DNA from: an uncultured Planctomycetota bacterium
GTDB taxonomy: Bacteria; Planctomycetota; Planctomycetia; Isosphaerales; Isosphaeraceae
DNA: 64,000 bases
NCBI GenBank assembly: GCA_963823665.1
Contig: CAWGMQ010000003.1
Coordinates: 160,001-224,000, forward strand
Reading direction: 5' to 3'
In this document: positions 27,652-45,680 of the stretch, in pieces
Layout of the letters: each line of letters opens with the position of its first letter
How positions within the stretch are numbered: the stretch's first letter is position 1
Notes under the pieces: model-generated
The model's database searches: none
Seen by the model: only the letters and a program-made list of their open reading frames with translations
Told to the model about the DNA's origin: nothing
Made by a program: the position numbers and the translations under genes

Positions 27652-28608
27652 TTAATCGAACAGCATTTTTTCGCCATTCGTTGAATGCTTACGTGATTTG
27701 CGGCGGGCGGGGATAACCGCCGGGGCATCCTGTGCCTGTTTTTCATGTGGTTCAAACCGGAACCGGCTGGCTTCCAGGTATTCGGCGTTGTGCTCGACGG
27801 CAATCCAGTTGCGCGCCAGCTCCTCGCACGCCTCACCGGTCGTGTTGCTGCCGGCGAACGGGTCGATCACCAGGTCGCCCGGATCAGTCAGAAACCGGAT
27901 GAAAAAATGCGGTAGCTGAATCGGGAAGCGTGCTGGATGCGGCTTCACGCCGGATTCGTTGCACCGCTCAAGGTAATGGCCGTTTGCGTCGTTGTTGCCG
28001 CAGATGATGATGTTGCCCGGTATCGACCCGCCGTTGTCCTTGAATTTCTTGGTGATGATGTGGCCCGACGGCCTGACCTTCGGCTTGTAGCCCTTAATCA
28101 GCAGCCGCTTCATGTCCGGGCTGTATTCCTGGAGAACCTTCTGGTTATCCGCCTTTGGCCACGGCGTTTTCGATAACCACCAGACGCATTCGACGGAATC
28201 CTTGACGCGAATCTTGCGCACGTTAACCCATTCGGCAGGCGATGGCAGCTTGCCTGGGTTGTACCAGAAGAATTCCTGCGCCAGATGGAATCCGGCCTGC
28301 CGGCACAGGGCGATCAGCAGCTCAAAATGATAAAGCGACCGCGTAGGCTTCCCCGGCGTCCACGCGCCGCCAATGTCGATCACGGCGCTGCCGTCGTCGG
28401 CAAGGATACGATGGATTTCGCGGGCGAACGGCAGGAACCATTGGATGTAATCACCCTGGTTGGCGTTGCCGTATTCCTTTTTGAAATGCAGGGCATAAGG
28501 CGGCGAGGTCATCATCAGATTGACGCTGCCGCCGGGCATGCCCTTCATAAATTCCAGCGAATCCGTGACGTAAGCTTTGCCGAGGTCCGTCTTGTAAAGC
28601 GGGGTCAT
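27652..28608 (-). CDS. beta-class amino DNA methyltransferase, probably N4-cytosine
   Basis: TSPPY (motif IV) precedes HPARFP and [10 protein letters not shown] (motif I). Confidence 0.92.
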
Positions 28609-29177
28609 GGGCGATGCGCGTCTCCGATTGCCTGTTCAAGATGCTCGCGCCAATGGCCGGCAGCCGTCGGCGGAACCTTCTGCATGATGACGAGATAGTC
28701 CGGGTGCGGCGTCCGGCGCTCAAGATTGACGCTGGCGCAAAACAGGAACTTCCATTCGCCTGTTTGGTTGAACAGGCACGCTGCCAGGATGTCGAACTCA
28801 TCCACCTTATATCCGCGGCTGGGGCCGCCCGCGATGGCATTTCTCGTTTTCTGAATCTCCACCTTGAAACCGTCGCGGAAAACCTTCGTGCCGCTGCGGA
28901 CGTTCTTGCATTCGATCCGGTAAGTGGCACCGCCGATTTCGACGATGAAGTCGGGGTCACCTGTTGCATCGCTCCACGTGAGGCTGCCGATGTTCAATCT
29001 CGCGCGCCCGGCGTCCATATACCGGTGGAGATAGAATTCAGCCAGCTTGCCTTTCACATCCGTCCGCGCCCGATGGCCATGCTCGATGGCCGACAGAATT
29101 TCCCAGCCGGGCGCTTTGAATAGTTCCTCAAGAGGATGTTTCCTCGGTTGTCCGCTTTCCCAAAACTCGGGCGGCAT
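28605..29177 (-). CDS. putative type II restriction endonuclease (PD-(D/E)xK)
   Basis: KGKLAE ... GDPDFIV...[12 protein letters not shown] overlap with the methyltransferase. Confidence 0.7.
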
Positions 29178-29493
29178 CCTTGCCTCCTGGCAACGTCGTC
29201 CCTGACGCTGGCAGTACGGAACAAACGATCATTGTAACGGGCAAATCTCCCAATCGCTAGGATCGGCTTTTCGGGTGCCTTGGAATTCCTCTTTTTCCTA
29301 AAGAAATCCCGTCCCGCGTGCGCCCAGAACGCTTAGCGGGACGCTGGCCACTGCCATACGCTTTCCTGCAACCGGCGTTGCGGCGGCTTTTCACCTAAGC
29401 GTTGCTCGATCCTGCCCCATTTCTGATTGGGCGTTCCGGCTGCGCCGCCGCGGGGATGTCGCCGGGTCGCCTTGGGGGATCGCTCCCCCAAGG

Positions 29494-31913
29494 GCCGGGT
29501 AAGGAGGTGACGTTACCGCCACCCCCTCCCCTCAGAACTGCACGTGAAAGTTTCCCTTCATGCAGCTCAAGCCTTCACGAACGCCCCTCGCAGGACGCGG
29601 CCGCTTTCGTCAGTCGTTCTTGGACATGGATCTGCCGATGACAGTTGGCATGCAACAACTCCAGGTTGTCGGCTGTGCCAGAACCGCCCCGGCTGCGCCA
29701 GATGCGATGGTGGAGATGCAAGTCTTCCTCTGCGATCCGCAGCGGTTGACCACAGACCACGCATCGTCCCTCTTGTTCCTTCCATAAGTATTCGATCCGA
29801 CCCCGACCTGCCAGCGTTTGGCTCAGTTGCCAACCCAGTCGTGCTTCCAGGTACAGTTCCCACTTCGGATCGTAGGGATTCACGTCGCTCCGGATCTTCA
29901 CATAACGAATGATCTTCACTTTGGCTGCTTCCATCAACTGGATCGGCCGGCCTTGGCCTTTCTGGTCAAACAGCGTACCGGTGAAGACCCAGTGGCGGTA
30001 ACCGTCTTGCTGGAAGTATTTCTCCTTGATCCACCTCCGGCCTTTGTTCTGGTGCCGTCGTCGACACCAACGCCACAATTTCTGGAAAATCCGGTGATCC
30101 ACGTACGTAAAAGTGCGCTTGCTCGCCGCGTAACGGTGGTACATGGTCCAGCCCTTGATCTGCTGATTCAAACGCCAGATCATCTCTCCTGCCGTTAGGC
30201 TGCCCGAGCCGTCGATCGTTTCCTGTATCTTGTTCAAGAACGTCTTCACGTTTCGCAAGGACGGCTTGGTGAACACCTTGCCGCAGCGATAGCGTCGCAC
30301 ATTCTGCCCCAAGAAATCGAAGCCATCCTCCACATGCGTGATCTGGGTTTTCTCGTGGGAAAGTTCCAAGCCGCGTTCCTTCAAGAAATGAGCCACGAGA
30401 GGTTGCACTTGGTCACGGAGGAGTTCCTTTGAGATGCCCGTGATCAAGAAGTCATCCGCATAGCGGACCAGGTGGACTTTAAACTTCCGTTGTCGCCCGT
30501 GCTTCTCGGCGAACTGTTCCGCCAACAGCCGTTGCAGTCCATCCAGAGTCCAATTCGCCAGGACGGGTGAAATGATCCCGCCTTGAGGTGTTCCTTCCGT
30601 GGTGGCGAACCAGGCGTGCTTCTCCAGGAAACCCACTTTCAGCCATTGCCCGAGCAACTGCCGGTCCATGGGGACGTGCGTCAAGAGCCAGTCATGACTG
30701 ATGCGATCAAAGCAAGCTTTGATGTCCCCTTCGAGAATCCATGCTGGACCGCTCCGATTACCCAAGACAATATGAGATTGTTCCAGGGCGTCGGCACAAC
30801 GACGTTCCAGCCGAAAGCCATAGGAATGGCCGTCGGCTCGAGATTCCGCAATGGGATCGAGGCCTAGCAAGTATAATGCCTGCATGGCTCGATCTGACAT
30901 GGTGGGAATTCCGAGAGGACGTCGCTTGCCGTTGCTTTTGGGAATGTACACCCGGCGGAGCGGTTGCGGTTGGTAACCGTGCCGACGCAGAGTGCTGAAA
31001 GCAGCCGACTTGGCTTCCGGTGTGTTCCAGAGAACTCCGTCCACACCGGGAGTCTTCGCACCCGAATTACTGATGACTCGCAAAATGGCCAGGGCCCGGC
31101 CACTGAACGAGTGCGTGAGCAGATAAACCAGAGCCTTGACCTTATTCCATCTGCCCTCCGCAACAGCCTTCACGATACGCGCCTGGAGCCGACGGACTGT
31201 GCGCCAGACTTTCTTCCATTCGATGGAGTGCCAGTCGGGCGTAAGCTCGGGAGCCGCACCAGCAAGCATTTCTGCCGCCGACATATCTGCTTGTCTCCCT
31301 GAGTCGGTTGGCCAAGGTTCTCTCGTGACGGAACACCTGAGGGAAGTCGGCACCGCTTTCGCGGTGAGGGGATGTCGTCCGTGGGAGGACTCACCCTCTA
31401 TCCGATCGACTACCGAACGGCATTGGCTTGCTCCCTCATCCTCCACCCGCCGCCCCATCGGCGACGCCTTACGACGGTCCTACCCCGAAGGGAGGGCGAC
31501 GGGCTTACCACGTTCCACGGATGAATCACGGATGGTTTAGGCTCTGCCTCTCCGCCGGTGGCTCGGATGACGACGACAGGGGATGGGAAATCCCACTGTA
31601 CCTGGCCACGTACCTTTTTGGTTCAAGCCTCTCAGCGCCTTTGGCTTGTTGGATCTCACGACGTTTATCGGCAGTTCACCTGGATTAGCCATGCCATCCA
31701 CCCCTGGCCCCCGACCGCATTGGCGTTCGCAGTCGCCGGATTCCCTCACGGGATATCCAACCACCCGAAGGTGAGGTTACGTTGTCCCAAGAGCTTCGCA
31801 CGGTCGGATTGCTCCGGCCGCACGTCCTGGTAGGGTTCCGGTGGTCGTACATCGGGTTATGTCCTGGTTGCAAATCCAGTCATAACAGACTCATCCGCAG
31901 CTTCGTTTCGCGA
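29494..31913 (-). mobile_element. group II intron C (CL1-type), nested in D6 of intron B (boundaries +/-2 nt)
   Basis: D5 GAGCTGCATGAAGGGAAACTTTCACGTGCAGTTC and D6 at 29494-29570. Removing it restores GGGAG-CCTTGGGGGA-GCGA-TCCCCCAAGG-CGACCCGGC. Candidate EBS1 TTCCCA (31584-31589) pairs with the 5' flank TGGGAG. Confidence 0.87.
29575..31284 (-). CDS. ltrA: group II intron reverse transcriptase/maturase with C-terminal HNH endonuclease; intact
   Basis: [43 protein letters not shown]...[10 protein letters not shown]...[14 protein letters not shown]. Confidence 0.95.
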
Positions 31914-31960
31914 CTCCCACAGATCCGGGCTTGCCCAATTCAGGCACCCGGCTCGTCATG

Positions 31961-33313
31961 TCACTTGTTCGCTACGAGACGGCATACCGAGTGGATCGCG
32001 ATCGCTGCCGGAAGCGGTTTATGCTTCAGGAAACGAGCGAACCGATCCCACGTCATCCGACGGCCGCGCCGCGGCGCGACAGCCAGTGCTGCCAGAGCCA
32101 GGTGGCACCACTGCGAAACCGTGACAACATTTTGGAGTTGCCGGTGATTCCGTAGTAGGCATAGTGGCCTAGCAGTTTCTGACCTAGTATCCGGTGCTGC
32201 ACCTTGAGCGGTTGATGGCGATTTTTGCGACACCAATCCGCCAACGTTCGCAGGCTGCGGCGAAATCGACTTTTGGACGTCTTGCGCTTCACCACCCAGC
32301 GACCCTGCCGGGAGCGACCCCAGTAATGCGTGAACGCCAGCAGGTCGAAAGTCCCTGGTGGAGTTCGTGTGGGTCTGCCTTCCGGTTTGGGACGGTCCGA
32401 TGGCCGCTCGAACGGCACCAGCCGCGTCTTGTCCGGGTGGATGGTCAAGCCGTACTTCTCAAAGCGTTTGGGCAACACATTCATCACACGCCGTGCGTCG
32501 GACTCGCATGAGAAGACCATGACGAAGTCGTCCGCATAGCGGATCAAGAACGATCTGCCCATCATCCGAGGCTGAACCTCCCGCTCGAACCACTCGTCCA
32601 GCACGTAGTGCAGGAAGATATTCGAAAAGGATCGGGCTGATCACACCCCCTTGTGGCGACCCCATTTCGGGGTGCGTAACGCACCCGTTCTCGAAGACGC
32701 CCGCATTGAGCCATTTGCCGATGAGCCGGAGCAGCACTCCGTCTCGCACCCGACGCTTGAGGAAGTCGCGTAGATGGCCGTGGTCAATCGTGTCAAAGAA
32801 CTTACGAATGTCCACATCCACTACCCATCCGCCCTTCATGTTCATCGTCTGTTGCCACAGGCTCTCTGACGCAGTGTGTGCCGATCGCTCGGGCCGGAAG
32901 CCATGCGAGCAGTTCTTGAAGTCCTGCTCGTATATCGCCTCCAGAACCATCACGACAGCACGCTGGAGCACTTTATCCTCGAAGGTCGGGATTCCCAGTG
33001 GCCGGGTTTCGGTCGCTGAGCCTGCCTTGGGGATATGCACTCGCCGCACAGGCGGTGCGTGGTACGTACCGGACTTGGCTCGTTCCAGCAGCGACCGTAG
33101 GTTCGGGACCAGGTTCGCTGCGTAGGCCTCGCCATCTTGTCCGTCTACGCCCACCGCCCCGTCTTGGCGGGTCCGGTAGTAAGCTGTGAGCAGCCAATCG
33201 AGGTCGATGAAGTGCCCCAGGGATGTGAATCCCATCTCCGGGCTTCGCCGAGCGAGTTCCGCTATCCGTTGTTGTTTCGTGGACACGTCCACGGGTTCCG
33301 ATGCACCCGCCAT
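31961..33313 (-). CDS. ltrA: group II intron reverse transcriptase/maturase without En domain; frameshifts near 32625 and 32070
   Basis: [56 protein letters not shown]. Confidence 0.88.
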
Positions 33314-33926
33314 GTTTCCCTCCAACGGTTGTGTGACATGGCGTCTCCTTCCCTCCACCGGGTCCCTCGGAGTGGTTCCCCGGCTTCAACGGTACTACGA
33401 GACGCTCCGACTCCCATCCGCCCCTTTCGCCGCACTTCGTTGCCTTCGTGTGGCGATACCACCCTTGCGTCCTGTTCGCTCCCAGCGACCCGACGCGGGG
33501 TCGTGGGCCGGGGAGTTGGTATTCCGGATCCCGAGCCGGAAATGTCAGTGGAGACGGATGGGGCTCTCAGGTTCCCGAGCAACCCTCGCGTCCCTGCGCC
33601 ATGTTCTTGGACCCCGGCAGGACCGAACACGCCAGGCCATTGCGGCGTGTCGACACGGCCCCCGCTTGTGTCTACAACGGAGGCTCCCACGATGAGTATT
33701 TCGGGGCTCGATAGCATGGCATGGAGACTCGCTGTCTACGCTTCGCAGTGAGGGTCACCCCTCCCCACGCAAGACTTGCTTCCGGCTGCCGGCCAGGCTC
33801 TGCCGGGCGGGATTCGTTAACCCGCAGGGTCGCGATGAAAGGTTTCTGTGTTTCGAGGCACTTCCTCCTTTCTCGAGCTTTTCCTGACGCAAAGACACCC
33901 ATCGTCTGCGGAGCGTCGGGGATGTT

Positions 33927-34658
33927 GCCGGGTCGCCCTGGCGGATCGCTCCGCCAGGGCTCCCACTGATCCGGACGTGCCCAATTAAGGCATCCGGCTC
34001 GTCATGTCGCGGCGTCGCTGTCCCTCACACGATCTGGTCGCCTCGCGGTGACGCGCTCTGAGGTCCAATGCCCTCGGCGTGGTTCCGGCTTCCAGTCCGC
34101 GACACGGTACCCCCTTCGCTCCACAGGGTCTGGGAGGGCCCATTCCCCCGCTTCACTGCTACTACGGAGCACTCCGACTCCCGTCCGCCCATTTCGCCGA
34201 ACTTCGTTGCCTTCGTTTGGCGATACCACCCTTGCGTCCTGTTCGCTCCCAGCGACCCGACGCGGGGTCGTGGGCCGGGGAGTTGGTATTCCGGTTCCCG
34301 AGCCGGAAATGTCAGCGGAGACGGATGGGGCTCTCAGGTTCCCGAGCAACCCTCGCGTCCCTGCGCCATGTTCTTGGACCCCGGCAGGACCGAACACGCC
34401 AGGCCATTGCGGCGTGTCGACGCGGCCCCCGCTTGTGTCTACAACGGAGGCTCCCACGATGAGTATTTCGGGGCTCGATAGCATGGCATGTGGACTCGCT
34501 GTCTACGCTTCGCAGTGAGGGTCACCCCTCCCCACGCAAGACTTGCTTCCGGCTGCCGGCCAGGCTCTGCCGGGCGGGATTCGTTAACCCGCAGGGTTGC
34601 GATGAAAGGTTTCTGTGTTTCGAGGCACTTCCTCCTTTCTCGAGCTTTCCTGACGCAA
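33927..34658 (-). mobile_element. ORF-less group II intron A, 732 nt
   Basis: Same GGGTGTCT|TTGCGTCAGG 5' junction as intron B. First ~500 nt are nearly identical to intron B, including EBS1 (34435-34440). Short D4 without an ORF. D5 GAGCCGGATGCCTTAATTGGGCACGTCCGGATC and intact D6. Confidence 0.87.
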
Positions 34659-34845
34659 AGACACCCACCGTCTGCGGAGCGTCGGGATGTCAGACACCCA
34701 CCGTCTGCGGAGCGTCGGCCACTCGCCTTCTGCGTGCTGGAAATGACCGGAGGCCGTGGTTTTGCGCCGAACGTGCGAGCCGCGAATGAATGGAATGCGG
34801 GGGACCGTAACAAAAGGATGGGTGTCTGGAACCTCTGGAACCTCT
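34659..34845. repeat. ~150-bp element with inverted AGACACCCA/TGGGTGTCT ends, plus a tandem 33-bp end unit; copy 1 (intron host)
   Basis: Units at 33893-33926, 34659-34691 and 34692-34718. The body matches 44465-44635. Confidence 0.85.
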
Positions 34846-35049
34846 TGAGATCGGGTCCCACTCCTAGCTCCTCGGCCGGGTCGGCCCGCAGCCATTTACA
34901 CCGTAATAATTGGGCCGCAACCGATGTCAGCCCTCACTTCTCCGGCTGTAATAGCCGCCCGGCCAGGAGTGCCTCGGCCTCTTTTAAGAGACTTTGTGCT
35001 TCTTGATCTCGCGCCGATTGCGGCTTCTGCATCGTCTCGCTCAACTGAT

Positions 35050-36955
35050 TCAGGCTCGCCTGCGCCCGGTCCTTCTCACCCATCTGGTACCGGGCCATCG
35101 CCCGAAAGGCCAGGTCCGCGGGAGCGTGAGCCCCTTGAGCCGCCTGGTTGAGTTCGTCCGCGCCGTCAGCGTGGCCAGGGCCTCCTGGTAGCTCCCCAGG
35201 CGGTACTGGGCCATCCCCAGAGTGGTGTGGTAGGAACCCTCGAACGGAATAAGGCGGCAGGCGATTTCCGCCTGCTGAATCGCCCGTCGGTACGCGGCGG
35301 CTCCAGCGCCCGGCCGAGAGGCGACCGCCCGACTGGCCCGGTCAAGGTAGTGCGGGGATTCCCCGAATCGCTGCGCCAGGGCCAAGGCCTCTTGCCGTAC
35401 AGATTCGCTAAGGACAGGATCGGCGCGGAGGTGTGCGAGGATCTCAGACCGGAACAGAGCCTTGTAGATGAGAGACTTCACCGCTTTCTCGGCCTCCTGA
35501 CGGACGCGGTTTCGCCAAAACGGCTCGACCAGGGCAAGAGCTTGCTGCCGCACGGCGTCGCTGACCGCGTAGTCTCTGAGCCGGGCCGACATCGCCTCCG
35601 GGGCCGGCGATTGGGCGAACAGGTACCTGACCAGGCTTGCCGCCTGCCGCTGTTCGGCAAGTTCCGCGTCCAGGGGGGACCCTTCCCAGATCGTCACGCC
35701 CTCGTCTCCGCTGACCGCGAGGCGCCGGCCACCGCGATCGAACGCCACACGGTGGAACTGGGCCGGCGCCCGCGCAGGGTAAGGATTTCCTGTCCGGTGA
35801 GGGAGTCCCAGAGCTTCACTTCACCGGAGAGATGCCCTCCCTTGCTCACCCCGCCCGCGGCGGTGACAAGCCGCCGGCCGTCAGGACTAAATGCCACCCC
35901 AGTCACGGCGCTCGTATGTCCGCGGAGAGTAAGGAAGGTCTCTCCGGTGACCGCGTCCCAGACCTTGACCGACCCGTCCAGACTCGCGGCGGCGAGCCGC
36001 GAGCCGTCGGAACTGTACGCCATGCGTGTGACAGATCCCTCGAGGCTGGGCAGCGTGAGGATCTCCTGTCCCGTGGCCGGGTTCCAGACACGCACGGTCC
36101 CGCCCGCACTCGTGGCCAGGCGCTCACGGCCGGGGCGAAAGGTCACGTGGGCGAGCCCGGCGTCTCTGCCAGGCCCGGTTCGCCCCGGAAGTGTCATGAC
36201 CGTCTGCCCCGTGCTCATGTCCCAAATCACGACCTCGCCGGGAACGAGCCGTCCTCCCCTCGCCACCTCGCGGCTAATGGAAGCGAGCCGCTGACCGTCG
36301 GGGCTAAAGGCCACAGCGCGAACAGAAGCGGTGTGTCCGCGTAAACAGAAGATTTCGACGCCAATCGTCGCATCCCAGACACGTACAGTCCGATCCGCTC
36401 CGGCGGAAGCGATCCGCCGGCCGTCGGGACTGAACGCCAGTCCCAGAACGGTACGGCAATGCCCCGTCAGTCTGAAGACCTCCAGCCCCGTGGTTGTATC
36501 CAGGATACAAACAGTGTTATCCGTGCCGGCCACGGCCAACTTCCGGCCGTCCGGGTCAAACGTCATATCGTTTATGGTGCCGACGGCCGAGCTCAAAGTG
36601 ACGGAATCCATAGCCGCCGTCACATCCCAGAACTTCACGGTGCCGTCCCCACTCCCTGAGGCCAAGCGCCAACCGTCGGGGCTAAACGCCACGCTCGCGA
36701 CAACGTCCTTGTGGCCGCGCAGAACGGCGGCTTCTTGCCCAGTGGTCACGTCCCAGACCGTCACGGTATCGTTCCCACCCGCAGCCGCGAGTCGTCGGCC
36801 GTCCGGGCTAAACGCCAGACCCAGAACTCCATCCACCTTTTGAAACGCCTGGGTTTCTCTCCCAGTGTCCGCGTCCCAGACCTTCACCACCCCATCGTTG
36901 CTGCCCGAAGCGAGTCGGTGGCCGTCGGGGCTAAACGCCACGCTGTTGACCAAGG
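35050..36955 (-). pseudogene. WD40-repeat plus TPR protein, C-terminal fragment (5' part missing; internal frameshifts)
   Basis: Multiple VxxVAFSPDGxRLAS...VKVWD repeats, then YHTTLGMAQYRLG. The repeats begin abruptly next to AGACACCC at 36964. Confidence 0.85.
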
Positions 36956-37328
36956 GGGTTTCCAGACACCCACGCACAGCCCTGAAATCGCAACATGTCG
37001 AGCACAACCATGCCGATGCCGTTACATGCACACCAAGTTGCTTCAAACCCCGAGAGGTGCGGTGCGGGCGTCTAACCGTTACTCCGAATTCCGAGAAACG
37101 AGGCCGACTCTGACCACAATTCTGTTGCGAGGGAGGATTTGCACGCCTCGTTTGACGCGGCCCACATGCGGCTGGTGCTGGTCAATGTGCCCCGGAATCC
37201 TGGTGATCTCGCACCTGTTCATCCAGGCCTGGGGGGAGAAAGCCTTGTGTCGGCCTGGGCTGGGGGTCTAAAATCCGAAATGAGCTTCGCGACGAAGAGT
37301 TCTAACTCATTCGAGGAGTGATTCGGAG

Positions 37329-38057
37329 ATGCCGTTGCTCGATCATTTTCATGCCCCTCTTCACCCGCAACGGCACTGGGAGGCGTTTCACTCGCGTTGG
37401 GCCAGCGCAATTGCCGACGCGCTGAACGCGGATCTCTTGCCGCCGGATTATTTCGCCGAGCCTGAAACACACGCCACCGGCCGGGTAGAAATCGACGTAG
37501 CGACGTTCGAAGCGCCCGGCGAGGAGGGGGCCGGCGGAGGGCTGGCCACGGCGACGCTCCCGACGCGCGTCTGGAGCGCTCCGCCAGCGGCCCTCTCGAT
37601 GCCCTGCGTATTTTCAGGGGCGTTTCGCGTGCGGGTGTTCCGCAACGAAGGCGGCGCGGTTCTCGTCGGCGCGATCGAGCTCGCCAGCCCGGGCAACAAA
37701 GACCGCGCCGGAGAGCGGCGCGCATTTGCGGCCAAGTGCGCGAACTATCTCTATGAAGGCGTGAGCCTGGTTGTTCTGGACGTCGTTACCAACCGCCATG
37801 GAAACCTGCACAATCAGGTTGTCGACTTGATGCAGTGCGACTCAACCTTTCACTTCGGCCGTGAGGAATCGCTCTATGCCGTCGGGTATCGGCCGGTCCG
37901 CCGCGAGTCGGCCGACGTCGTCGATGTGTGGCCGACGGAGCTTTTTCTGGGGCAACCTCTGCCGACGCTCCCGCTTTATCTGAGTGGCGATGTCTGCGTG
38001 CCGATCGAGCTCGAGGCGACGTACAACGACGCCAGCCGTCGGCTGCGTCTGACTTAG
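37329..38057 (+). CDS. DUF4058-family protein
   Basis: MPLLDHFHAPL..RHWEAFHSRWASAI, AIELASPGNKD, GVSLVVLDVVT, PLPTLPL. Confidence 0.8.
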   Translation: MPLLDHFHAPLHPQRHWEAFHSRWASAIADALNADLLPPDYFAEPETHATGRVEIDVATFEAPGEEGAGGGLATATLPTRVWSAPPAALSMPCVFSGAFRVRVFRNEGGAVLVGAIELASPGNKDRAGERRAFAAKCANYLYEGVSLVVLDVVTNRHGNLHNQVVDLMQCDSTFHFGREESLYAVGYRPVRRESADVVDVWPTELFLGQPLPTLPLYLSGDVCVPIELEATYNDASRRLRLT

Positions 38058-38136
38058 AGTCTTTCAGATGGTCGTGGCAACGAATCGAGTTCACCTGGCT
38101 GGTTGAACAGGGAGCCCGCTCCAAGGAATCGGAAGG

Positions 38137-38300
38137 AAAGCCAGACACCCAAACTCTGGCGAGCTAGATGCCCGGTCTCTGGAGTGGGTTTTGTTAGAAG
38201 CCAGGCACTCGTAGCTCGCACCCATTCGCGTTCTGCGATCGATGGGTGACGCAAAGACACCCACTTTCCGCAGTGCCATCTGTGGGTGTCTGGCAACCCG
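38137..38300. repeat. ~160-bp direct repeat copy 1, ending in an AGACACCCAC/GTGGGTGTCT hairpin
   Basis: Near-identical to 40497-40676. Partial third copy at 42231-42262. Confidence 0.9.
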
Positions 38301-38339
38301 GAGTTGGTAAGCCGGTGCTCCAGCCGGCCGTCACGATGG

Positions 38340-38455
38340 ATTTGGGCCGAGCCGATCGTGAGAGCGAGCTTCCAAGTCGACCAGCTGAGCTCGAAGGCCA
38401 GATAGAGAATAGGTCCGTTCGCCCTGGTAGACTGTGCGGTGTGAGTCGCTGACAC
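38340..38455 (-). pseudogene. IS110-family transposase N-terminal fragment
   Basis: ILYLAFELSWSTWKLALTIG matches the first strand of the DEDD domain in one IS110 subgroup, then breaks off. Confidence 0.6.
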
Positions 38456-38577
38456 GGTGGAGCTCCGTGTTTTAGATTTGAATATGCACATATGGAGCTT
38501 ACCTCCAGCGACTCACGAATCCACACAACCCACCTGTATAGGGTCTGACACCTTTGATCCCTGCGGAGTTTCAACCC

Positions 38578-40266
38578 ATGGGCAATAGAGACACCGCGGA
38601 ACCGAAGGGACGCGATCCCGGAAATGCGGCAGTTCCGCCGCACTCCAGGATCGTGACCTGGTCAGGCAAGCCCGCGGCCAGATGGGCCGCGGTGGGGTTG
38701 GTCTGCGTGATCCTCGCGCTTCCCGCATGGATGCTCAGGGATCATCTCCGCGATTTCATCCTGCTCGTCGACGACTTCGACTACCTCGGCGACGCAAGGG
38801 ACTGGCCGACGACCTGGGCGCATCTGTTCGAGCCGCACAACCTGCATGTCGTCCCGATCTTCCGGCTCTGGACATACGCAGCGATGACACTGGCCGGTCG
38901 GCTGCAGGGCCTGCCCACGGTACTGGCAGTCGCTTCGTATCTATCGTTGGTCGCCGCGATGGTCAGTCTGGGCTATCTCGTGGTGCGAGATACGCGGCAG
39001 CCGGTAGCAGCCCTGGGGGCAATGGCTGCGCTCGGGATATCAACCGTGAGTAATATTACTGTGATCTGGTACTCAGCCACTCAGACTCTGTGGGCGGGTG
39101 CTGCGTGCGTCGTGACGGTCGCGCTGGCGCGAGGCTGGGGCACGAAGGGCGGAGCTGTCAGACTCGCCGCGGTCGCACTCGGCGCGGCCGCAGCTCCAGC
39201 CATCTGGTCGGGCGGGCTTGCCGCCGGGCCGGCGGCGATCGCGTACCTCCTCGTGAGCAAAACACCGCGCCGTCGCTGGCCAGCCCTGCTGCTTCTGGCC
39301 GGTATCACGATGGCGGGCGCCTTGCTGATCACCGCGTCCCCCCGACGACACCTCCGGATCACTGCGAACTTCTGGGAGCAACATCCGGACCTCTGGCCAC
39401 GCCCTGTACAGGCCGTCCTGCACACGGCGCAGGCACTGGTTGAGGCATGTTTCTTCGCCAACCTCGGCGTGGATGCCACCACGACGCCATGGCAGGCCAT
39501 CGCGCTCCTCGTCGCCCTGGCCGCGGTGCACTCCTGGTCCCGGGGCGGACCGGGTCGGATCAGCCCGCTGGAGGCAGCGGGCGCTACGATCGCTGTTGCC
39601 TGCTGCCTGATGGAGTACACTTCGCGCGGGGACACGCCGTATAGCAATCTGCGGCCGGCGGTCTGGTATCACGCAATCCCCCAGGTCGGCGCTGTCCTGT
39701 TCCTTGCGGGTTGGTGGGCCGCGCTACGGGCCGACGGATTTGGGCGGTTCACCCGGGGTCAAGTCACCGGTGTCCTCAGCTTCGTCGTGGTCTTCTCCGC
39801 GATCCATGCGCCGCGCGCGCAGCTTCAGATCATCACCTTAGCGCCTCCTTTTGCCCCGAACGAAGCGGCGGCCTTCCCGACGTCCGAGCTCCGCCTGACC
39901 AGGGCCCTCTACTACAAGGACGAGGTCCATCGGCGGCAGGTCCGCGCGCTCGCGCGCCTGGACCGAGTCGACCGCATCCTCGCCCGTGCGGGCGCCAGCC
40001 CGGAGCTGCTGCGCGACGTCTTTGGTCGGGTGCTGATCCCGGGGATTGCCGAAAAGCAGTATGGTATCGATGCTTTCACCCTGCTGGTCCGGCGGCCAGG
40101 AAACGATAGCCTTCGCGATGCCTTGTCGCCCGCTCGCTCCGAGATCATGGACTTGCTGCAACCCGAGCCCGAGCCGGTGCCTTTCTGGCTGGATCCGGAT
40201 GACCCGCTGGCGCGGGCCGTCCGCGACGTCTCCAAGCAGCCCGCCGAGAAGCCGAGGTCGCGATGA
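38578..40266 (+). CDS. polytopic membrane protein, possibly GT-C glycosyltransferase-like
   Basis: About 10 TM segments. DDFDYL and PHNLHVVPIFRL follow the first TM. Confidence 0.65.
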   Translation: MGNRDTAEPKGRDPGNAAVPPHSRIVTWSGKPAARWAAVGLVCVILALPAWMLRDHLRDFILLVDDFDYLGDARDWPTTWAHLFEPHNLHVVPIFRLWTYAAMTLAGRLQGLPTVLAVASYLSLVAAMVSLGYLVVRDTRQPVAALGAMAALGISTVSNITVIWYSATQTLWAGAACVVTVALARGWGTKGGAVRLAAVALGAAAAPAIWSGGLAAGPAAIAYLLVSKTPRRRWPALLLLAGITMAGALLITASPRRHLRITANFWEQHPDLWPRPVQAVLHTAQALVEACFFANLGVDATTTPWQAIALLVALAAVHSWSRGGPGRISPLEAAGATIAVACCLMEYTSRGDTPYSNLRPAVWYHAIPQVGAVLFLAGWWAALRADGFGRFTRGQVTGVLSFVVVFSAIHAPRAQLQIITLAPPFAPNEAAAFPTSELRLTRALYYKDEVHRRQVRALARLDRVDRILARAGASPELLRDVFGRVLIPGIAEKQYGIDAFTLLVRRPGNDSLRDALSPARSEIMDLLQPEPEPVPFWLDPDDPLARAVRDVSKQPAEKPRSR

Positions 40267-40398
40267 CCGGGCGAGCCGATTGCCAGTTGACAAACTAGAA
40301 ACTAGACAACTAACTAAGGAAGAAAGGACATGCATTGCATTCTTGACGCGACTCGGCAATTTAGGTGAGCTCCGGCGATCAACGAAGGGCCTGCACCC

Positions 40399-40497
40399 AT
40401 GACGATGCTCCGCGCCCATCTCGTCGATCCCGCCGTAACCCGCTGGTACCACTGCGTCACGCGCTGCGTGCGACGCGCGTTCTTGGTCAGCGAAGGG
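40399..40497 (+). pseudogene. REP-associated tyrosine (Y1/RAYT-like) transposase, N-terminal fragment
   Basis: RAHLVDPAVTRWYHCVTRCVRRAFL, then the 160-bp repeat. Confidence 0.75.
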
Positions 40498-40676
40498 AAG
40501 CCAGACACCCAGGGAAGCCAGCGGCCCAAACTCTGGCGAGCCAGATGCCCGGTCTCTGGAGTGGGTTTTGTTAGAAGCCAGGCACTCGTAACTCGCGCCC
40601 GTTCGCGTTCTGCGATCGATGGGTGACGCAAAGACACCCACTTTCCGCGGTGCCATCCGTGGGTGTCTGGCAACCT
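40497..40676. repeat. ~160-bp direct repeat copy 2
   Basis: Matches 38137-38300. Confidence 0.9.
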
Positions 40677-40689
40677 CGCAGCCAGGTCG

Positions 40690-41010
40690 TTACCACTTCG
40701 GTGAGATTGGCGGCAACCAATCGGGATCGTCAACTAGCGCCGAGTGCCCAATGCCAGAAATCAACAGTGCCGTCTCATCCGGAGTGTAACGGTAGAACAG
40801 GACGACGTGGTGAAGTGTTTTGCCAAGCCGGTGCTTGAAGCTGCTCATCATGCCGCCAGGCAGATAAGGAGGCGAAACCACTCGCTGGCCGAGAGTCGAA
40901 GGAGATTCCGCCAAGCGAAGCGCGTGGCCCAACACGGGACGTTGCAGCCAGTCCGGTAGAGCCTTCAGTTCCTTTTTTGCCTTCTCCGTAAATTCAAGCT
41001 CATACTTCAT
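40690..41010 (-). CDS. RelE/ParE-fold toxin-like protein
   Basis: MKYELEFTEKAKKELKALP...LRLAESP N-terminus. 106 aa. Overlaps the upstream gene. Confidence 0.6.
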   Translation of the reverse strand: MKYELEFTEKAKKELKALPDWLQRPVLGHALRLAESPSTLGQRVVSPPYLPGGMMSSFKHRLGKTLHHVVLFYRYTPDETALLISGIGHSALVDDPDWLPPISPKW

Positions 41011-41698
41011 GCTGATCGAGCGAGGCGACAACTTCGTCGAACGAGTGCAACCGGCCTGCGCGTTCGTCCTCCAGGGACTCTAAGATATCCGCTGGCTCAA
41101 GTCCGGGCATGAGGAATTGTTCGCCCGACATCTCGAAGATGCGCCCATCTTCCTCGACGCGAACGGGGCGAGGATTTGGGCGAAGGAATGCTATTACGTC
41201 CGCCCACTGCGCGGCGTTGCGTTCATCGTGAAAGAAGGGGTTGTTTCCCGCGAGTATTTGCTTCGCGTCGATGCAATGGCGCTTAAATTCATCCCCGCCC
41301 TCGACGGACGTCAGAGTCGCGTCAAAGTGGTCGATTTCATTAAGGCAACGTTGGCATGGAGCGGACCACCGGCGGTAAGATTCGAGCATCGACGCTTCTT
41401 CCTTGGGATCGTATAGCGTCTTTCCTTCGAGCACTTCGCGTCGCCAGTTCTGTTCTACCAGACGCATGGATTCGTACAACCAATTTCCGATCGCCAATAC
41501 ACCTTCGAGTCGACGGAGCTTCACCATTTCTTGCCGTTTTTCGGCCGAGCGCTTCCAATTCAAGATTCTTCGACTGAATGTCGCGTGGTCAACCGAAATC
41601 GGAGAATCCAGTTTGGCGGCATAATTCGGCATCTCGCCGACAAAGAATTCGCCGAGTCGGGACGGCGCGATGGATGGGAATAGCGCGGCGACTGACAT
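41000..41698 (-). CDS. hypothetical protein, putative enlarged antitoxin
   Basis: GGAGG RBS. C-terminus ILESLEDERAGRLHSFDEV is typical of RelB/ParD-like antitoxin tails. Confidence 0.55.
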   Translation of the reverse strand: MSVAALFPSIAPSRLGEFFVGEMPNYAAKLDSPISVDHATFSRRILNWKRSAEKRQEMVKLRRLEGVLAIGNWLYESMRLVEQNWRREVLEGKTLYDPKEEASMLESYRRWSAPCQRCLNEIDHFDATLTSVEGGDEFKRHCIDAKQILAGNNPFFHDERNAAQWADVIAFLRPNPRPVRVEEDGRIFEMSGEQFLMPGLEPADILESLEDERAGRLHSFDEVVASLDQHEV

Positions 41699-42685
41699 GA
41701 CATCCTCCGACGAAACGGGGCGGTGGCGCTTTAGCGCGGGTCAGGGGTCGTTGTCGATCCCTTAACGCTTGATTCGGTTGCTTCGGTGGTCGAATGGTAC
41801 CGGGCATTCGAGCCGGTGTTGGCCAATCGCACTGCCTTCAAGATTGCAGCGCACTGACAGGGTCTTGACTTTGTCTTGACCGTGTCGTTACCGGGAATGT
41901 ACCACAATGTGTAACATTGTGCCACACTATAAGTGTATTGCATATATGGCCCAAGGTAAGCGTGATGCGCTGTGTAACTGATATAGGAGACTGCGTCCCT
42001 ACTCAGGATTTCTTCCGCTTGAGGTTGGCTGTGAACTCGCCTCGGGCGTTCTCCAGCTCATTGGCTGCGCTGGTGGCAACGCTCTTGAACCGGAGGTATT
42101 CCGAGAGCCCGTACAGACACACCGACACCAACACCGCCGAACCAATGGCGGTCGCAAAGATTGTCGCCCGCGACCATCTCGAACGGAGGCGATAAAAGTG
42201 GTCTCTGTAAGGGCTTGTTGGTGCGGGGTCTGCAGTGTCATCTGTGGGTGTCTGGCAACTCCGGAAGCGACAGCTTCCCCTCCCTGTTCAGCACGGATCG
42301 TCACGTTATCGGCGGTGCGTGGGGGAACCCAGCGAACCCACACATCCACTCTCCGGACTCGGTTCCGGAAAAGCCAGGCACACGTGACTCGGAGAGGAGC
42401 CCGAGAGGAGCCAGGCACCATTCTCCAAACTGAGTCAGGGAAAAGCCAGGCACAGGTGACTCGCACCAGTTTGCGCCCCGCGATTGCCGGTTGCCTCGCA
42501 GACGACGCCGCGCTAGAAGGGGCGGGCTTGTGCAGCACATTAGCGCCAGTATCCACAAGAACGCTGCGTCATTTACCGCGCGCAGTCACAGAATCGCCCG
42601 GCCAGCCCTCGTGCGAAATCCGTCGCAGCGCCGTAGGATGTGACGAGCAATCCTGGGCACTCCCCACCTGAATCAGGAAAGCGTC

Positions 42686-44347
42686 ATGTCACGAACCGAC
42701 CCAACCTTGATCAGTCAGATCTCCAAGAAGCACCGGGACGTTGTCCACGCGATTCTCGAGCACCAGGGCGGAAACCTCTCCAGGGACCAGTTCTACCGCC
42801 GGACCAAGAAGCAATGGAAGACAGAGCGCGGGACCCTGGATACCGCCACGGAGTATGTGGAAAGCCTGAGCCAGTTCGAGACTGTCTACGGGTGCACGCA
42901 TGAAGAAGCCGAGGCGATGGTGGTCGCTGTTATCTACAAGTCATGTCTCCTGGACCGCGGTGTCGCCCGGCGGATCATGACCGAAGACGCCAACGAATTG
43001 GAAGCTGCACTAAGCCTCAGCGCTCGCCTCGATTGGATCGACAACTGTTACCCGTCCCAACCATGGGGCGAGTCGTATCCTGACATCTGGTTCGCTCTGC
43101 GGGGGCTCGCTGCAGGCGACATCGACGTCGCCCGCGCCATCTTCCGGGCTCGGCACCACGACTCCGACCGCGGCCACAAGCCGACCGTTCTGGTTTACGA
43201 CGCCGTCGAGGCCATCGTGATCAAAGATCGACCGGCGCAGGCGCGCATTGCCCCCAGAATCGCCAGGTGCAAAATGCCGGACTGGTTCCAAGCCATCCTC
43301 GAGACACTCGAAGGCATCATCGAGGCCGACTCCTCACTCGTCGCCGCAGGGCTCGAACGGGTCCTGGCCACGTTCCAACGTCAGTCTGACGCGCTCGACT
43401 TCGAGTTGATCATCTCCCTCCACGCCCATGCGCTTGCCGAGCTAGCCTACTGGGTCTCACCGAAGCTGCTTGCGAAGTTCGATGTGGACCGGCCGCTTCC
43501 CTGGGACCGTGGCTACTACCACTGGCCCAGGCGGAAACCTCGGTCAACCGAATATCGAGACCTCTCCGCTTATTCCAAACTGTTGAACCGTTGGGTTCAT
43601 GATCTGGAAGAGCCCGATTGGTGGCATCGCGCGCTCGAATCGGCCGAGGAAAAGCAACCGGCGCCCGGTTCCGCATCGATTTCGGAGGAAGCTGGCAGCG
43701 GGGTATCCGAAGCAGTTCCCATGCCTGTGGATCGTCCCGCTGCTATTCTGATGATCCGTGCCGAAGCCCCAGCCAGAAGGAAAGAGGCCCACCACGCGCT
43801 TGAGCGTCGCGATATCGGCCGGACGGAACGGGAGACTTCGTCGGGTAGCGGCGAGGAGATGATTCCCTGGCTGAAGGACGATTTGATGTGTAGCGGCGAC
43901 ACCCGCCCCTGGCTTCTCAGTGTGCGGTTCAAACGCGAGGGCTGGATTCATTGTATCGAATCCAGGCCGGGTCTCGTCTCCGTCGAACGGCTCGCCGGCA
44001 ACGGGGAACTTCAGGTTCTCACCGCCCGCTTCGATCCCGAAGAAAACCGCACTGTTGCGCAATTCTTCAAGGGCGGAAAGATCGCGGCCGAGCTCACTCT
44101 TGCCGGGAAAGGAGACGATTCGCTCGATGTGCTCGAGTTCAAGTCATCGGTCAAGACAAAGGCGTTTCTCAAGCGCTGCCGAACGGTGCGGCAAGCCCTC
44201 GACGGTTTCTTCGCGGAGTTTGACGCCAGTCCACGCGACCTTGTCGTGATTGAAGCGAAGGGCGGTCTCAGGCTGATGGCCTCGGACGGAAAAGCCGCTC
44301 GCGCCGCCGAGCTGGACGAAGTGGCTCTCACCTACTATGAGCCCTGA
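42686..44347 (+). CDS. two-domain hypothetical protein; N-terminal helical domain possibly Imm49-like
   Basis: 553-aa ORF with AGGA upstream. Two domains joined by a P/A/E/S-rich linker. The immunity similarity is an impression only. Confidence 0.55.
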   Translation: MSRTDPTLISQISKKHRDVVHAILEHQGGNLSRDQFYRRTKKQWKTERGTLDTATEYVESLSQFETVYGCTHEEAEAMVVAVIYKSCLLDRGVARRIMTEDANELEAALSLSARLDWIDNCYPSQPWGESYPDIWFALRGLAAGDIDVARAIFRARHHDSDRGHKPTVLVYDAVEAIVIKDRPAQARIAPRIARCKMPDWFQAILETLEGIIEADSSLVAAGLERVLATFQRQSDALDFELIISLHAHALAELAYWVSPKLLAKFDVDRPLPWDRGYYHWPRRKPRSTEYRDLSAYSKLLNRWVHDLEEPDWWHRALESAEEKQPAPGSASISEEAGSGVSEAVPMPVDRPAAILMIRAEAPARRKEAHHALERRDIGRTERETSSGSGEEMIPWLKDDLMCSGDTRPWLLSVRFKREGWIHCIESRPGLVSVERLAGNGELQVLTARFDPEENRTVAQFFKGGKIAAELTLAGKGDDSLDVLEFKSSVKTKAFLKRCRTVRQALDGFFAEFDASPRDLVVIEAKGGLRLMASDGKAARAAELDEVALTYYEP

Positions 44348-44464
44348 CGGCTGCCGAGAATCCCGCCGGCGTGCACCGCTCACAGGCGATTCGGATCGTT
44401 CGTCTTGTGCTGCAACCATCAAGTACACCATCGTCAACTACCCCAACCTCCAGAACGGATACAC

Positions 44465-44635
44465 GGGATGCCAGACACCCACCGTCTGCGGAACGTCGGA
44501 CCCTCGCCTTATGCGTGCTGGAAATGACCAGAGGCCGTGGTTTTGCGCCGAACGTGCGAGCCGCGAATGAATGTGTGCGGGGGACCACGACAAAAGGATG
44601 GGTGTCTGGAATCCTTCTGGAATCCTGGAATCCCC
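44465..44635. repeat. intron-free copy 2 of the ~150-bp AGACACCC...GGGTGTCT element
   Basis: Aligns with 34684-34845. Ends in reiterated CTGGAATCC. Confidence 0.88.
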
Positions 44636-44717
44636 GTCGAGGCCGGAAAACCGCAGCCCGGCCCCACGGGGCGGTACCCCCGTAGGAGCCAGGCCAGGGC
44701 CACCCGACGGCGACGAC

Positions 44718-44951
44718 TCAGAACACACGCGTACGAACGGCAGACGCCGCCAGGTCACGATTGGTTCCTCCCAGATTCTCATCCAAGCGGCAGGCGCGGC
44801 AACGGTCCGCGAGATTGGCGAGATCCAACGCCGCGCCACAACGAGAACAGCGAGGCGGCCGGCTCAGCGCCCAGATCGCCACAGCAACGATCGCCGCACT
44901 AAGGGTCGCCCCCACAAACACTCCCGCACCAAAAATGAACGCCCAATTCAC
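44718..44951 (-). CDS. small membrane protein with zinc ribbon
   Basis: N-terminal TM, then CSRC...CRAC. GGAGG RBS. Confidence 0.5.
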   Translation of the reverse strand: MNWAFIFGAGVFVGATLSAAIVAVAIWALSRPPRCSRCGAALDLANLADRCRACRLDENLGGTNRDLAASAVRTRVF

Positions 44952-45545
44952 CGTTGATTCCTCCGAAACTGATCGACCGAGATGTTCACCGCCGCCAGCG
45001 CAGCGACGGCCAGCAGCGCACCCACCACGATCGCCTTACGCATCGCCCGGCCTCCCCTGGCCTCGTTCGACGGCCGGGACCTTGGCGCCCGCGTCGAGCA
45101 CTTCGGCTCTTCGCGCCGCATACGAGCGATACTCCGGGCCGTCGCACTCCGGACACGCACCGTTGCCTCGCCGCCTCATGCCGTTGCAAGAACGGCACAC
45201 CACGAGTGCCGCATCACGCCGCGATTCCCGGTGCGTGCCCAGGATCTCGCCCGCGACCACGACCATCTTGGTGAACGACCAGGCCCCGCCATGGGCTTAG
45301 GCACGACCAGGTCAGGGCGCGGCTCCTGGACCGTCGGCCGGCCCGGCGTAGCAGGCACACTCCGTGCGCCGCCCGCCGGTTTTGCTTTGGCCTTCTTGCC
45401 GGGCGCCGGCTTGGCCGGGACCTTGATCTCGAGGAGCCGGCGCACCGCGCTGGCCAGGGCCGAGCCTTCGAAGAGCGGCTTTTTCGAGCGCCCCAGACAA
45501 ACACCCGTTGGAGTCGGTTCTGTGGACGACAGACCAGGGCGTTGT

Positions 45546-45655
45546 CAGGTCGATTGCGGAGCACGCAATGCAGGTGGTTGCTCATAATGGCATAACCGCA
45601 CACTTAAGCGCCGAAGAGTCCGGCGAGGGCGCGTAGCCGATCGAGAATCCAGGCC
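45546..45655 (-). pseudogene. Y1/RAYT-like transposase internal fragment including the HUH motif
   Basis: WILDRLRALAGLFGA*VCGYAIMSNHLHCVLRNRPD. Begins directly after GGCAGACACCCAC. Confidence 0.75.
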
Positions 45656-45680
45656 GTGGGTGTCTGCCTCCACTCACCGA

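Follow-up and report, generated by a model that had tools for sequence, protein, structure and literature searches.

Background

In the TIRtrons (TIRYT), as described in the available text of Di Nocera et al. 2013 (PMC3733652), a RAYT-like Y1 gene is flanked by terminal inverted repeats and not by REPs, and these repeats are also found alone, as dimers and in clusters. For REP arrays a nick, extend and re-join model has been published (PMC3333891); in model B for the amplification of REP-BIMEs, as outlined in the accessible text, a nick, 3' extension and attack on the 5'-phosphotyrosine lead to tandem copies (PMC3333891; PMC8266576). Y1 genes and fragments of subclass 2.1 TnpA-REP beside prochlorosin genes were proposed to drive local diversifying recombination, with the authors' own remark that there was no strong evidence for causality (Laurenceau et al., 10.1101/2020.03.09.984088, in the text available). 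In addition, the group II intron RmInt1 is described as homing into another mobile element, ISRm2011-2 (PMC5894124).

Distribution of the motif

The window, the whole stretch of DNA that was analysed, comprises 64,000 nt from the genome of an uncultured soil bacterium of the Isosphaeraceae. All 15 copies of GGGTGTCT that the sequence-only reading had counted on both strands were recovered at the same coordinates and strands (33893, 34659, 34692, 34820, 36964, 38143, 38255, 38284, 40503, 40632, 40661, 42246, 44473, 44600 and 45658), and the rest of the window was confirmed to contain no further copy. The chance expectation of about 0.5 copies given there was too low; recomputed for the whole window it was 1.77. 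The highest number of copies in any of 100 shuffles of the window was 5. Genome-wide, GGGTGTCT occurred 554 times versus 226 times for the reversed control, and TGGGTGTCTGG 126 times versus once for the control. The genome therefore contains several clusters of the motif, of which the window is one and not a unique site. No burst of the motif was found in 300 other genomes sampled across the phylum (maximum 32 copies).

The features at the locus are the following, with the strand in brackets where one applies.

29461..33892 (-): full-length group II intron B, inserted at GGGTGTCT^; Rfam RF02005; both junctions mapped
29497..31912 (-), boundaries approximate and inferred by eye: second intron (RT-HNH, 627 aa), located inside domain VI of intron B; Pfam RVT_1/GIIM/HNH, Rfam
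33893..33926 (-): duplicated left end of unit A, lying between two introns; a re-created intron target
33927..34658 (-): ORF-less 732-nt derivative of intron B; domains V-VI complete, both junctions mapped
34659..34845: first non-autonomous unit A; about 128 nt separate its two cores, 34692 (-) and 34820 (+), which face outwards
34933..36949 (-): C-terminal WD40-TPR part of a Ser/Thr-kinase-WD40 gene (Pfam), its 5' side cut beside a lone end
36955..36972 (-): lone element end
37329..38057 (+): intact DUF4058 gene (Pfam); full-length orthologue (92%) in sister genome G029
38134..38299: first non-autonomous unit B; an end, right-subterminal DNA of the Y1 element (84%) and a small doublet
38343..40496: block between two direct copies of unit B; presumed IS110-like remnant, 570-aa gene and 5' start of a second-type Y1 gene
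40495..40675: second unit B; 17 nt of an end are duplicated
40690..41698 (-): ParE-family toxin gene (Pfam PF05016) and upstream 232-aa gene (ORF list), no signs of truncation
42229..42262 (+): lone end, corresponding to the right arm of unit B; a short 3' fragment of a gene lies in front of it, at 42003-42228 (-)
42326..42560: derivative of the Y1 element, degenerate and with an internal deletion; right subterminal part 84%, leader 87%
42686..44347 (+): 553-aa gene, no Pfam hit, no signs of truncation; paralogue L060 72% over 42675-44237
44464..44635: second unit A, oriented as the first; CTGGAATCC x3
45540..45673 (-): 116-nt internal fragment of the cognate Y1 gene plus an 18-nt end, fused at 45655/45656

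The element ends and their transposase

GGGTGTCT is the conserved core of the inverted end (about 17 nt) of Y1/HUH elements of about 1.9 kb, with T-GGGTGTCT-G-(G/A)-N-W-T-CCC as the end consensus. It had first been regarded as a group II intron target motif; an intron does target the core, but this role is secondary and the motif is primarily a transposon end. Association shows it to be the recognition core of TIRtron-type ends, the cognate 409-aa Y1/HUH transposase being encoded elsewhere in the genome. On either side of the intact Y1 genes L092 and L093 there is a core that faces outwards. The core also flanks 14 of 16 distinct full-length relatives with at least 60% identity (distinct loci, after removal of 4 obtained twice), the other two having a variant inverted repeat, and 13 of 17 relatives below 60%. 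Within the family, 7 of the 8 genomes with at least 49 copies of TGGGTGTCTG contain a close homologue; genome G043, however, has 106 motif copies and only a 47% homologue, and G040 has many homologues yet 14 exact motif copies.

Short non-autonomous derivatives carry the same GGGTGTCT-cored inverted ends. Units A and B are MITEs, being short, non-coding and bounded by terminal inverted repeats common to the autonomous element; the interior of unit A gave no match to the Y1 element beyond the ends.

HUH (H76-L-H78) and Y189-VDL-NP (Y189-x-x-x-N), the signature of Y1/HUH class 2, were invariant in the transposase alignment. The protein had no Pfam hit at E<=0.1 and matched NCBIfam NF047646 below the cut-off. 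The top Foldseek match of an alignment-based model (pLDDT 66 overall, about 80-90 across most of the core) was E. coli TnpA-REP (4ER8, E 9.5e-4), followed by IS200/ISDra2 transposases, and the transposase is thus predicted to have the TnpA-REP/IS200 fold. Folding from the single sequence gave no usable model (pLDDT 42). Alignment with two subclass 2.1-like proteins of the same genome showed two core insertions and a long C-terminal tail; judged against the published description of the subclass, the enzyme appears to be TnpA-Y1 subclass 2.3-like. A second Y1 type in this genome (L088, L089) is without conserved inverted ends, and other Y1 genes carry GGGGWSAS ends.

Group II introns at the ends

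The core is also the insertion site of a group II intron and of its ORF-less derivative, which would home into it and so parasitise the transposon end. All 21 intron 5' junctions were located at the core, and insertion was clean, at +8, with the tail restored. Intron B is a group II intron by its domains I-VI, its RT ORF and its precise, target-restoring insertion; its exon 2 is the normal tail GACATCCC. The RT ORF starts at 33313 and has a one-base frameshift near 32625, where the extra base is missing from the contigs of 4 public runs. The stretch 33927-34658 had been taken for a truncated intron, wrongly, as it is complete and ORF-less with both junctions mapped. It is 94.7% identical to intron B over nt 1-546, and further copies elsewhere in the genome are 95-100% identical. 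The single AGACAC in the intron (nt 219), complementary to GTGTCT, is a candidate EBS1, with its loop position judged by eye. In unit B the tail at 38255, TTGCGTCA, consists of the first 8 nt of the intron and is probably an intron scar. Its junctions place the intron at the core, on which it would have specialised as homing site, and the end duplications would supply it with fresh targets.

Polar duplications and breakpoints at the ends

Nested end duplications were present at 49 of 170 ends and at 3 of 1266 control sites, the loci behind this and the other statistics having been picked around motif clusters and Y1 genes rather than from all 194 TGGGTGTCTG sites. The junctions have a polarity, with a constant side 7-8 nt past the core and a variable side opposite, and this holds over sizes from 100 nt to 6 kb. 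The junction weight peaks at +15/+16, and in a larger set 50 of 55 duplication junctions fell at +13 to +18. On the variable (acceptor) side there was no base preference, nor any purine/pyrimidine bias, among 64 junctions (purine in 42, background 65%). A C^T cleavage rule was rejected on the grounds of this acceptor side and of C|T occurring at only 6 of 32 unambiguous junctions. The flipped-strand control gave 29 duplications in 215 sites, 12 of them at +13 to +18; these are partly the same arrays viewed from the other side. With three other Y1 end patterns, all loose, the duplication test gave 3/46, 1/41 and 0/40. By eye, duplications were visible at L003 and L009, which have other Y1 end patterns.

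Inside the window the first unit A has a 33-nt duplication at its left end and CTGGAACCT x2 at its right; this doublet and the CTGGAATCC triplet of the second unit A had both been reported before as short tandem duplications.

The sequence-only reading depended on breakpoints not being random relative to the motif. Checked against homologues they were non-random: of 58 mappable ends, 30 had their homology break at the end point, compared with 10 of 121 controls (Fisher p=3e-10). Rearrangement junctions sit at +14 to +17. Among 32 junctions at +7 to +22, the partner was the interior of the element's own family in 16 (4 of which represent one inherited junction), another mobile element in 3 and other DNA in 13. 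Junctions away from any end, such as the IS110-like break, are also numerous in these regions. Among the 22 ends mapped in G029, no more than 4 have a break at +10 to +19.

Two of the breaks previously placed next to motif copies were found there. WD40 homology stops at 36949-36951, which is 4-6 nt outside the end, whose outer edge is at 36955, and the paralogue L059 (80%) runs on into a kinase-like ORF of at least 1172 aa; the first Y1 (RAYT) fragment, compared with L067/L071, breaks at 40496, precisely where the end has its outer edge. The second Y1 fragment (96% identical to L074, 90% to the intact L092/L093) does break close by, at 45655, 2 nt before the core, but on the inner side of the end. 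Similarly, the 49-aa fragment at 38343, which we take to be IS110-like by resemblance and which had no Pfam hit, lies within the proposed 50 nt, but its break is 44 nt past the end at 38299 and is therefore a separate junction. The term gene-fragment mosaic is overstated: 5 ORFs without signs of truncation cover 5,145 of the 11,773 nt (44%) of 33893..45665. Full-length homologues exist for the DUF4058 gene, for the 570-aa gene (membrane-protein-like, intact, 38554-40266) and, over most of its length, for the 553-aa gene.

Proposed mechanism and alternatives

With a probability of about 0.7, we infer that the Y1/HUH transposase nicks, extends and re-joins at the TIRtron-type end, with the intron homing on the core. 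The enzyme would nick a single strand at a constant position, 7-8 nt from the core on its outer side and 5' of AGACACCC, the strand being deduced solely from which junction side is fixed, and would remain bound to the 5' end of the element strand. Host polymerase would then extend the free 3' end over a variable distance into the element. Rejoining of the new 3' end to the bound 5' end would yield nested duplications, and joining to a 3' end elsewhere would fuse the element end to unrelated DNA, producing adjacent deletions, internally deleted mini-elements and truncated genes. Repeated rounds would build local mosaics like this window. In a wider form, which we consider rather doubtful, this Y1 clade would never transpose as a clean unit. 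Each end would be an independent nicking origin that grafts onto nearby 3' ends, a one-ended recombination engine duplicating host DNA (8 nt to several kb), fusing genes and keeping hypervariable islands in the 12-16 Mb genomes of soil planctomycetes, with introns riding along.

The same element and enzyme could also act by a two-cut chemistry as in TnpA-REP or IS608, which is unlikely. A C^C cut on the GGGTGTCT strand, 3' of a small hairpin and guided by GTGG, would be followed by strand exchange with a second cut site on the sister strand or elsewhere. In line with this, 37 of 64 junctions had C as the last base of the donor, about half of the ends carry GTGG in front of the core (47% with G at -2), and a change of GTAG to GTGG is described as redirecting the Marinomonas TnpA-REP to CC (PMC8266576). 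However, this chemistry predicts the same dinucleotide at both sites, whereas no base is favoured on the acceptor side. Folding of the end hairpin is weak, at -4.9 kcal/mol (z -1.06), as is that of the first 150 nt of unit A (z -0.33). The tails of relatives are longer and rich in T, and their junctions range from +14 to +21. The earlier suggestion of a Y1 transposase cleaving at REP-like hairpins thus survives as to the Y1 transposase, the likely agent of the rearrangements, but not as to a classical REP hairpin or C^T.

The ends might also be recombination sites of an integrase-free system that captures, orders and shuffles discrete gene cassettes to the benefit of the host. Intact small genes (DUF4058, the ParE pair) do lie between convergent ends, blocks lie between directly oriented copies of unit B (two) and of unit A (two), and the DUF4058 gene of G029 is also near a motif doublet. 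When 12 segments of this genome (G000) were aligned to G029, however, a junction with an end was clearly common to both genomes in only 1 of them, and no segment shared both boundaries. The block around the 570-aa gene (38343-40299) is 90% identical to G029 locus L201, which has a longer IS110-like remnant and no motif, and the cargo is often truncated or itself mobile DNA. Ordered cassette assembly is unsupported because segments common to G029 mostly have other boundaries there, and we regard it as improbable. Conserved cassette boundaries in different contexts, as in an integron-like array, were not found between G000 and G029, nor was a tyrosine integrase among the 34 window ORFs scanned. 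A search for empty sites gave 0 contiguous flank pairs, with homologues on both sides for only 4 of 66 units, and G029 searched with the flanks gave no orthologous pair.

Slightly less probable still is that the intron and its reverse transcriptase make the mosaic by reverse splicing and template switching at their target. The core location of every intron 5' junction, the many near-identical copies and the intron-derived tail of unit B fit this idea. Against it, the introns insert cleanly at +8 and rearrangement junctions lie at +14 to +17. Moreover, G029, with 126 motif copies, has polar duplications at 11 of 64 ends and a single motif-plus-intron-start match genome-wide. Judged from this comparison, the intron-driven reading, including template switching as driver, appears largely refuted.

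Long-read stutter or misassembly at the repeat is equally hard to credit: the extra base at 32625 is a probable assembly error and coverage is in pieces, no listed contig spanning the whole stretch, but stacked ends are likewise present in records whose contig names are of the short-read type (L134, L139, L157), a public contig (run X1, 37862-38166, 0 differences) bridges the left junction of unit B (38134) by 32 nt, and the duplicated copies have diverged (83-98%). None of the sequencing runs matched half of the stretch's words, and there was no RNA run among those listed.

Nicking and re-joining by the transposase, our preferred reading, bears on a large group of enzymes. Subclass 2.3 Y1 transposases form 1,359 clusters at 50% identity (E<=1e-30), for which the literature, in its accessible text, names no DNA substrate. 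With the ends as candidate substrate, and with a cut position and a strand predicted for them, the action of TIR-associated Y1 enzymes on DNA becomes directly testable. The footprint, with one fixed and one free end, matches neither IS608 nor REP chemistry. Should the enzyme join its end to arbitrary 3' ends, this would be a distinct bacterial route to gene duplication and truncation, and possibly a tool for joining ssDNA.

Comparison with known systems

In IS91/ISCR one-ended rolling-circle transposition and in IS26-type mosaics, a fixed end abuts truncated genes and direct element copies bracket blocks. The elements at this locus differ in their enzyme, in having both ends alike and inverted, and in duplications that point into the element. 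The predicted fold is shared with TnpA-REP of REPtrons and REP-BIMEs (Ton-Hoang et al. 2012, PMC3333891; Corneloup et al. 2021, PMC8266576). Unlike the REP systems, as far as the text of these papers describes them, the ends lack a stable GTAG-foot hairpin and follow no C^T rule, a junction has one fixed side and one that is sequence-free, the transposase gene is multicopy, and ends are joined to unrelated genes.

The protein resembles TnpA-Y1 subclass 2.3 as described in the available text of Quentin et al. 2018 (10.1101/279083) in its length, two core insertions, long C-terminus, Y-x-x-x-NP and multicopy state; here, however, one clade has conserved inverted ends and the second type (L088, L089) has none. 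Junctions were mapped here, unlike in the accessible part of the prochlorosin/TnpA-REP study (10.1101/2020.03.09.984088). The target of RmInt1 is the interior of an IS630 element, according to the text available (PMC5894124), whereas here it is the 8-nt core of a Y1 element end, re-created by duplication. Literature searches of accessible text turned up neither a pertinent account of these ends nor one of introns that home into them; figures and old-format supplements may list such ends.

The core here is GGGTGTCT, whereas most, not all, published TIRs of TIRtrons are GGGGWSAS (PMC3733652, available text). GGGTGTCT was absent from 4 text supplements. The TIRtron description reports, in the same available text, no polar duplications, gene truncation or intron targeting (PMC3733652). 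Having, like the TIRtrons, a Y1 gene flanked by terminal inverted repeats, the elements described here are a variant of the TIRtrons.

Motif copies and the ends that carry them

The genome measures 16.5 Mb in 12 contigs, and the window is part of contig C3. The 8-mer core motif occurs in it 15 times, each time within 33893-45665, as the sequence-only reading had reported; these copies exceed chance, although the expected number is 1.77 and not about 0.5. Counting across the genome, as that reading had suggested, extended the excess: the core was found 554 times versus 226 for the reversed control, and a longer word, TGGGTGTCTGG, 126 times versus once, its listed places forming several clusters. 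The contexts of the motif gave an end consensus of about 17 nt, T-GGGTGTCT-G-(G/A)-N-W-T-CCC, in which conservation fades past +15/+16, counting from the first G. The feature at 33893-45665 is real.

Features in and around the interval (window coordinates)
25580-26284 (-), DDE insertion-sequence gene for a transposase with an integrase core (rve)
27652-29177 (-), gene for an N6/N4 DNA methylase that follows a 190-aa ORF with no Pfam hit; the two may form a restriction-modification pair
29461-33892, group II intron B; its domain VI houses a second intron
29497-31912, this nested intron, of RT-HNH type
47663-51012 (-), genes whose products carry peptidoglycan-binding and OmpA-like domains

Two short units, A and B, account for 10 of the 15 motif copies, and three of the 15 are lone ends. 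Unit A is present twice in the same orientation, with about 128 nt separating the cores, and has many copies in this genome (G000) and in its sister genome G029; its interior had no match to the 409-aa Y1 element described below. The copies at 33893 and 34659 arose by duplication of unit-A ends and became sites of intron insertion. Unit B, also present twice in the same orientation, holds right-subterminal DNA of the Y1 element (84% identity). Between the ends, five ORFs without sign of truncation make up 44% of the interval; the other DNA there includes a 5'-cut kinase-WD40-TPR gene, fragments of Y1 genes and an IS110-like remnant. The block that separates the two B units matches, at 90% identity, a motif-free G029 locus with a longer IS110-like remnant, which indicates that the block originated in an ordinary context, by excision or trimming.

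The Y1 transposase and its element

A protein search with a Y1 protein of G000 gave 51 matches. The intact 409-aa copies (L092 and L093) lie inside elements of about 1.9 kb with outward-facing cores at both ends. The protein retains the HUH motif and the catalytic Tyr; relative to the short RAYT-like proteins of G000, it is extended by two insertions in the core and by a long tail. Structural matches of its model are TnpA-REP of E. coli and transposases of the IS200 family. These features agree with subclass 2.3 as Quentin et al. describe it, of which the protein is a putative member.

Among full-length relatives in other genomes (four loci retrieved twice were removed), those of at least 60% identity are flanked by the core in 14 of 16 distinct cases, and those below 60%, reaching down to about 41%, in 13 of 17. 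A second Y1 type (L088, L089) is without such ends, and among 20 weaker hits in the family, L181-L200, just one had a match. At least 49 copies of TGGGTGTCTG were present in 8 of 121 family genomes, 7 of which contain a close homologue (the exception is G043), while G040 has many homologues yet only 14 exact copies; because kinship and assembly quality make the genomes non-independent, these counts carry no test statistic.

Element copies L103, L108, L109 and L116 lack one and the same internal stretch (reference nt 520-1198, approximately) and are a non-autonomous sub-family. The short RAYT-like genes L002, L003, L004, L005, L006, L009 and L010 have inverted ends of their own, of the GGGGWSAS type or types related to it; at L003 and L009, nested end duplications resemble those at core-bearing ends. 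Locus L011 (G000:C10:187478-190660) contains, at about 900-1390, a CRISPR-like array with a repeat of about 36 nt, the last one being truncated by a leader that belongs to a Y1 gene of the second type.

Junctions at the ends

A tandem duplication spans the core at 49 of 170 ends, compared to 3 of 1266 control positions. The duplication junction peaks at +15/+16; the opposite boundary is variable (-28 to +8, hot spots +5 to +7), and no base preference was found there. In relatives, whose tails are longer and lineage-specific, core-spanning duplications were present at 53 of 144. Bigger repeats begin at the end point too: 103 and 123 nt (100%), 512 nt (98%) and a 2-kb segment (94%). At L294 (G000:C6:571344-583306), the second copy of a 5.7-kb tandem repeat (87% identity) begins exactly at an element end; its age makes the origin ambiguous. 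Genome G037 contains whole elements in tandem arrays; at L314 (G037:C2:452001-468000) these are Y1 elements of about 2 kb, 96-99% identical, every copy stopping at the same end.

Breakpoints in the interval, compared to longer homologues
Y1 fragment, homology stops at 40496, the outer edge of an end
WD40 gene, homology stops 4-6 nt from the outer edge of an end
Second Y1 fragment, break 2 nt inside an end
IS110-like piece, break 44 nt away from an end

The last of these counts as a separate junction. In the fetched loci, 58 of 143 distinct ends had an end-less homologue of the outer flank. Alignment started at +10 to +19 for 30 of these 58, versus 10 of 121 random positions in the same loci (Fisher p=3e-10), an excess weaker than it looks because 16 of 32 junctions rejoin the element's own family. 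These 32 junctions, at +7 to +22, comprise the 16 own-family ones (four being a single inherited junction), 3 to other mobile elements and 13 to other DNA. The association of breakpoints with the motif is further limited by G029, where only 4 of 22 mapped ends fell within +10 to +19. Many island breaks lie away from any end.

Proposed mechanism

The Y1 enzyme is associated with the end, and the junctions have one fixed side and one sequence-free side. From this we infer the nicked strand, the chemistry and causation by the enzyme. An HUH nick would be made at a fixed point of the end, on the presumed strand, and the enzyme would keep hold of the 5' end of the element strand. Polymerase extension from the nick and re-joining, which any 3' end could resolve, would leave a fixed and a sequence-free side. 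With a foreign 3' end as resolver, the outcome would be truncated genes, mini-elements and brackets of direct repeats. A two-cut exchange at C^C guided by GTGG (compare PMC8266576) is the main rival. No empty site was found among the 4 of 66 units that allowed a search for one. Assembly stutter as source of the duplications is argued against by stacked ends in records bearing short-read contig names and by a public contig that bridges the junction at 38134 with 0 differences (the sole junction bridged among the listed pieces). That the Y1 clade acts as a one-ended recombination engine at its ends remains a tentative reading, with a probability of about 0.22.

Group II introns and shared segments

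All 21 distinct 5' junctions of intron B and of its complete ORF-less derivative (732 nt) lie at GGGTGTCY^. A normal tail nearly always forms the 3' exon, and the intron contains a candidate EBS1 complementary to the core. At least three other near-identical full copies of the 4.4-kb nested-intron composite are present in the genome. Single-base differences to public contigs (at 32625, 32068 and 29575) suggest that the intron-gene frameshifts are assembly errors or recent mutations. Introns from two Rfam D1-D4 families follow this core in G036, G039, G042 and G043. In a further group II intron family, 5 of 8 listed junctions come after CAGACA, which is the end as it reads on the opposite strand; such insertions are found at L068:1062, L279, L300, L312 and L053.

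The intron insertion point is +8, and G029, with 126 motif copies, has polar duplications at 11 of 64 ends and one motif-plus-intron-start match. The mosaic is thus not explained by the intron, one of the two drivers that the sequence-only reading had proposed.

Assembly of DNA cassettes had also been proposed. Segments shared with G029 (85-98%) are scattered there, with mostly different boundaries: an end junction is clearly common to both genomes in 1 of 12 segments shown, and both boundaries in none. On these grounds the islands are read as by-products of a selfish element rather than as an integron-like array.

Comparison with known systems

IS91/ISCR and IS26 are further systems with which the element can be compared. 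Tested for REP character, the ends do not qualify as REPs. The literature and supplement text searched gave no description of these ends, their polar junctions or introns homing into them, though figures and other papers might. The locus adds a putative substrate for the subclass 2.3-like clade and mapped fixed-end junctions to unrelated DNA. The core-bearing Y1 element is a TIRtron by the broad definition of Di Nocera 2013 (PMC3733652), although its end motif is not of the GGGGWSAS type; the proposed mechanism would resemble model B for amplification by Ton-Hoang et al. (PMC3333891), minus the second C^T cut which that model includes; and intron B, like RmInt1 (PMC5894124), lives in another mobile element.
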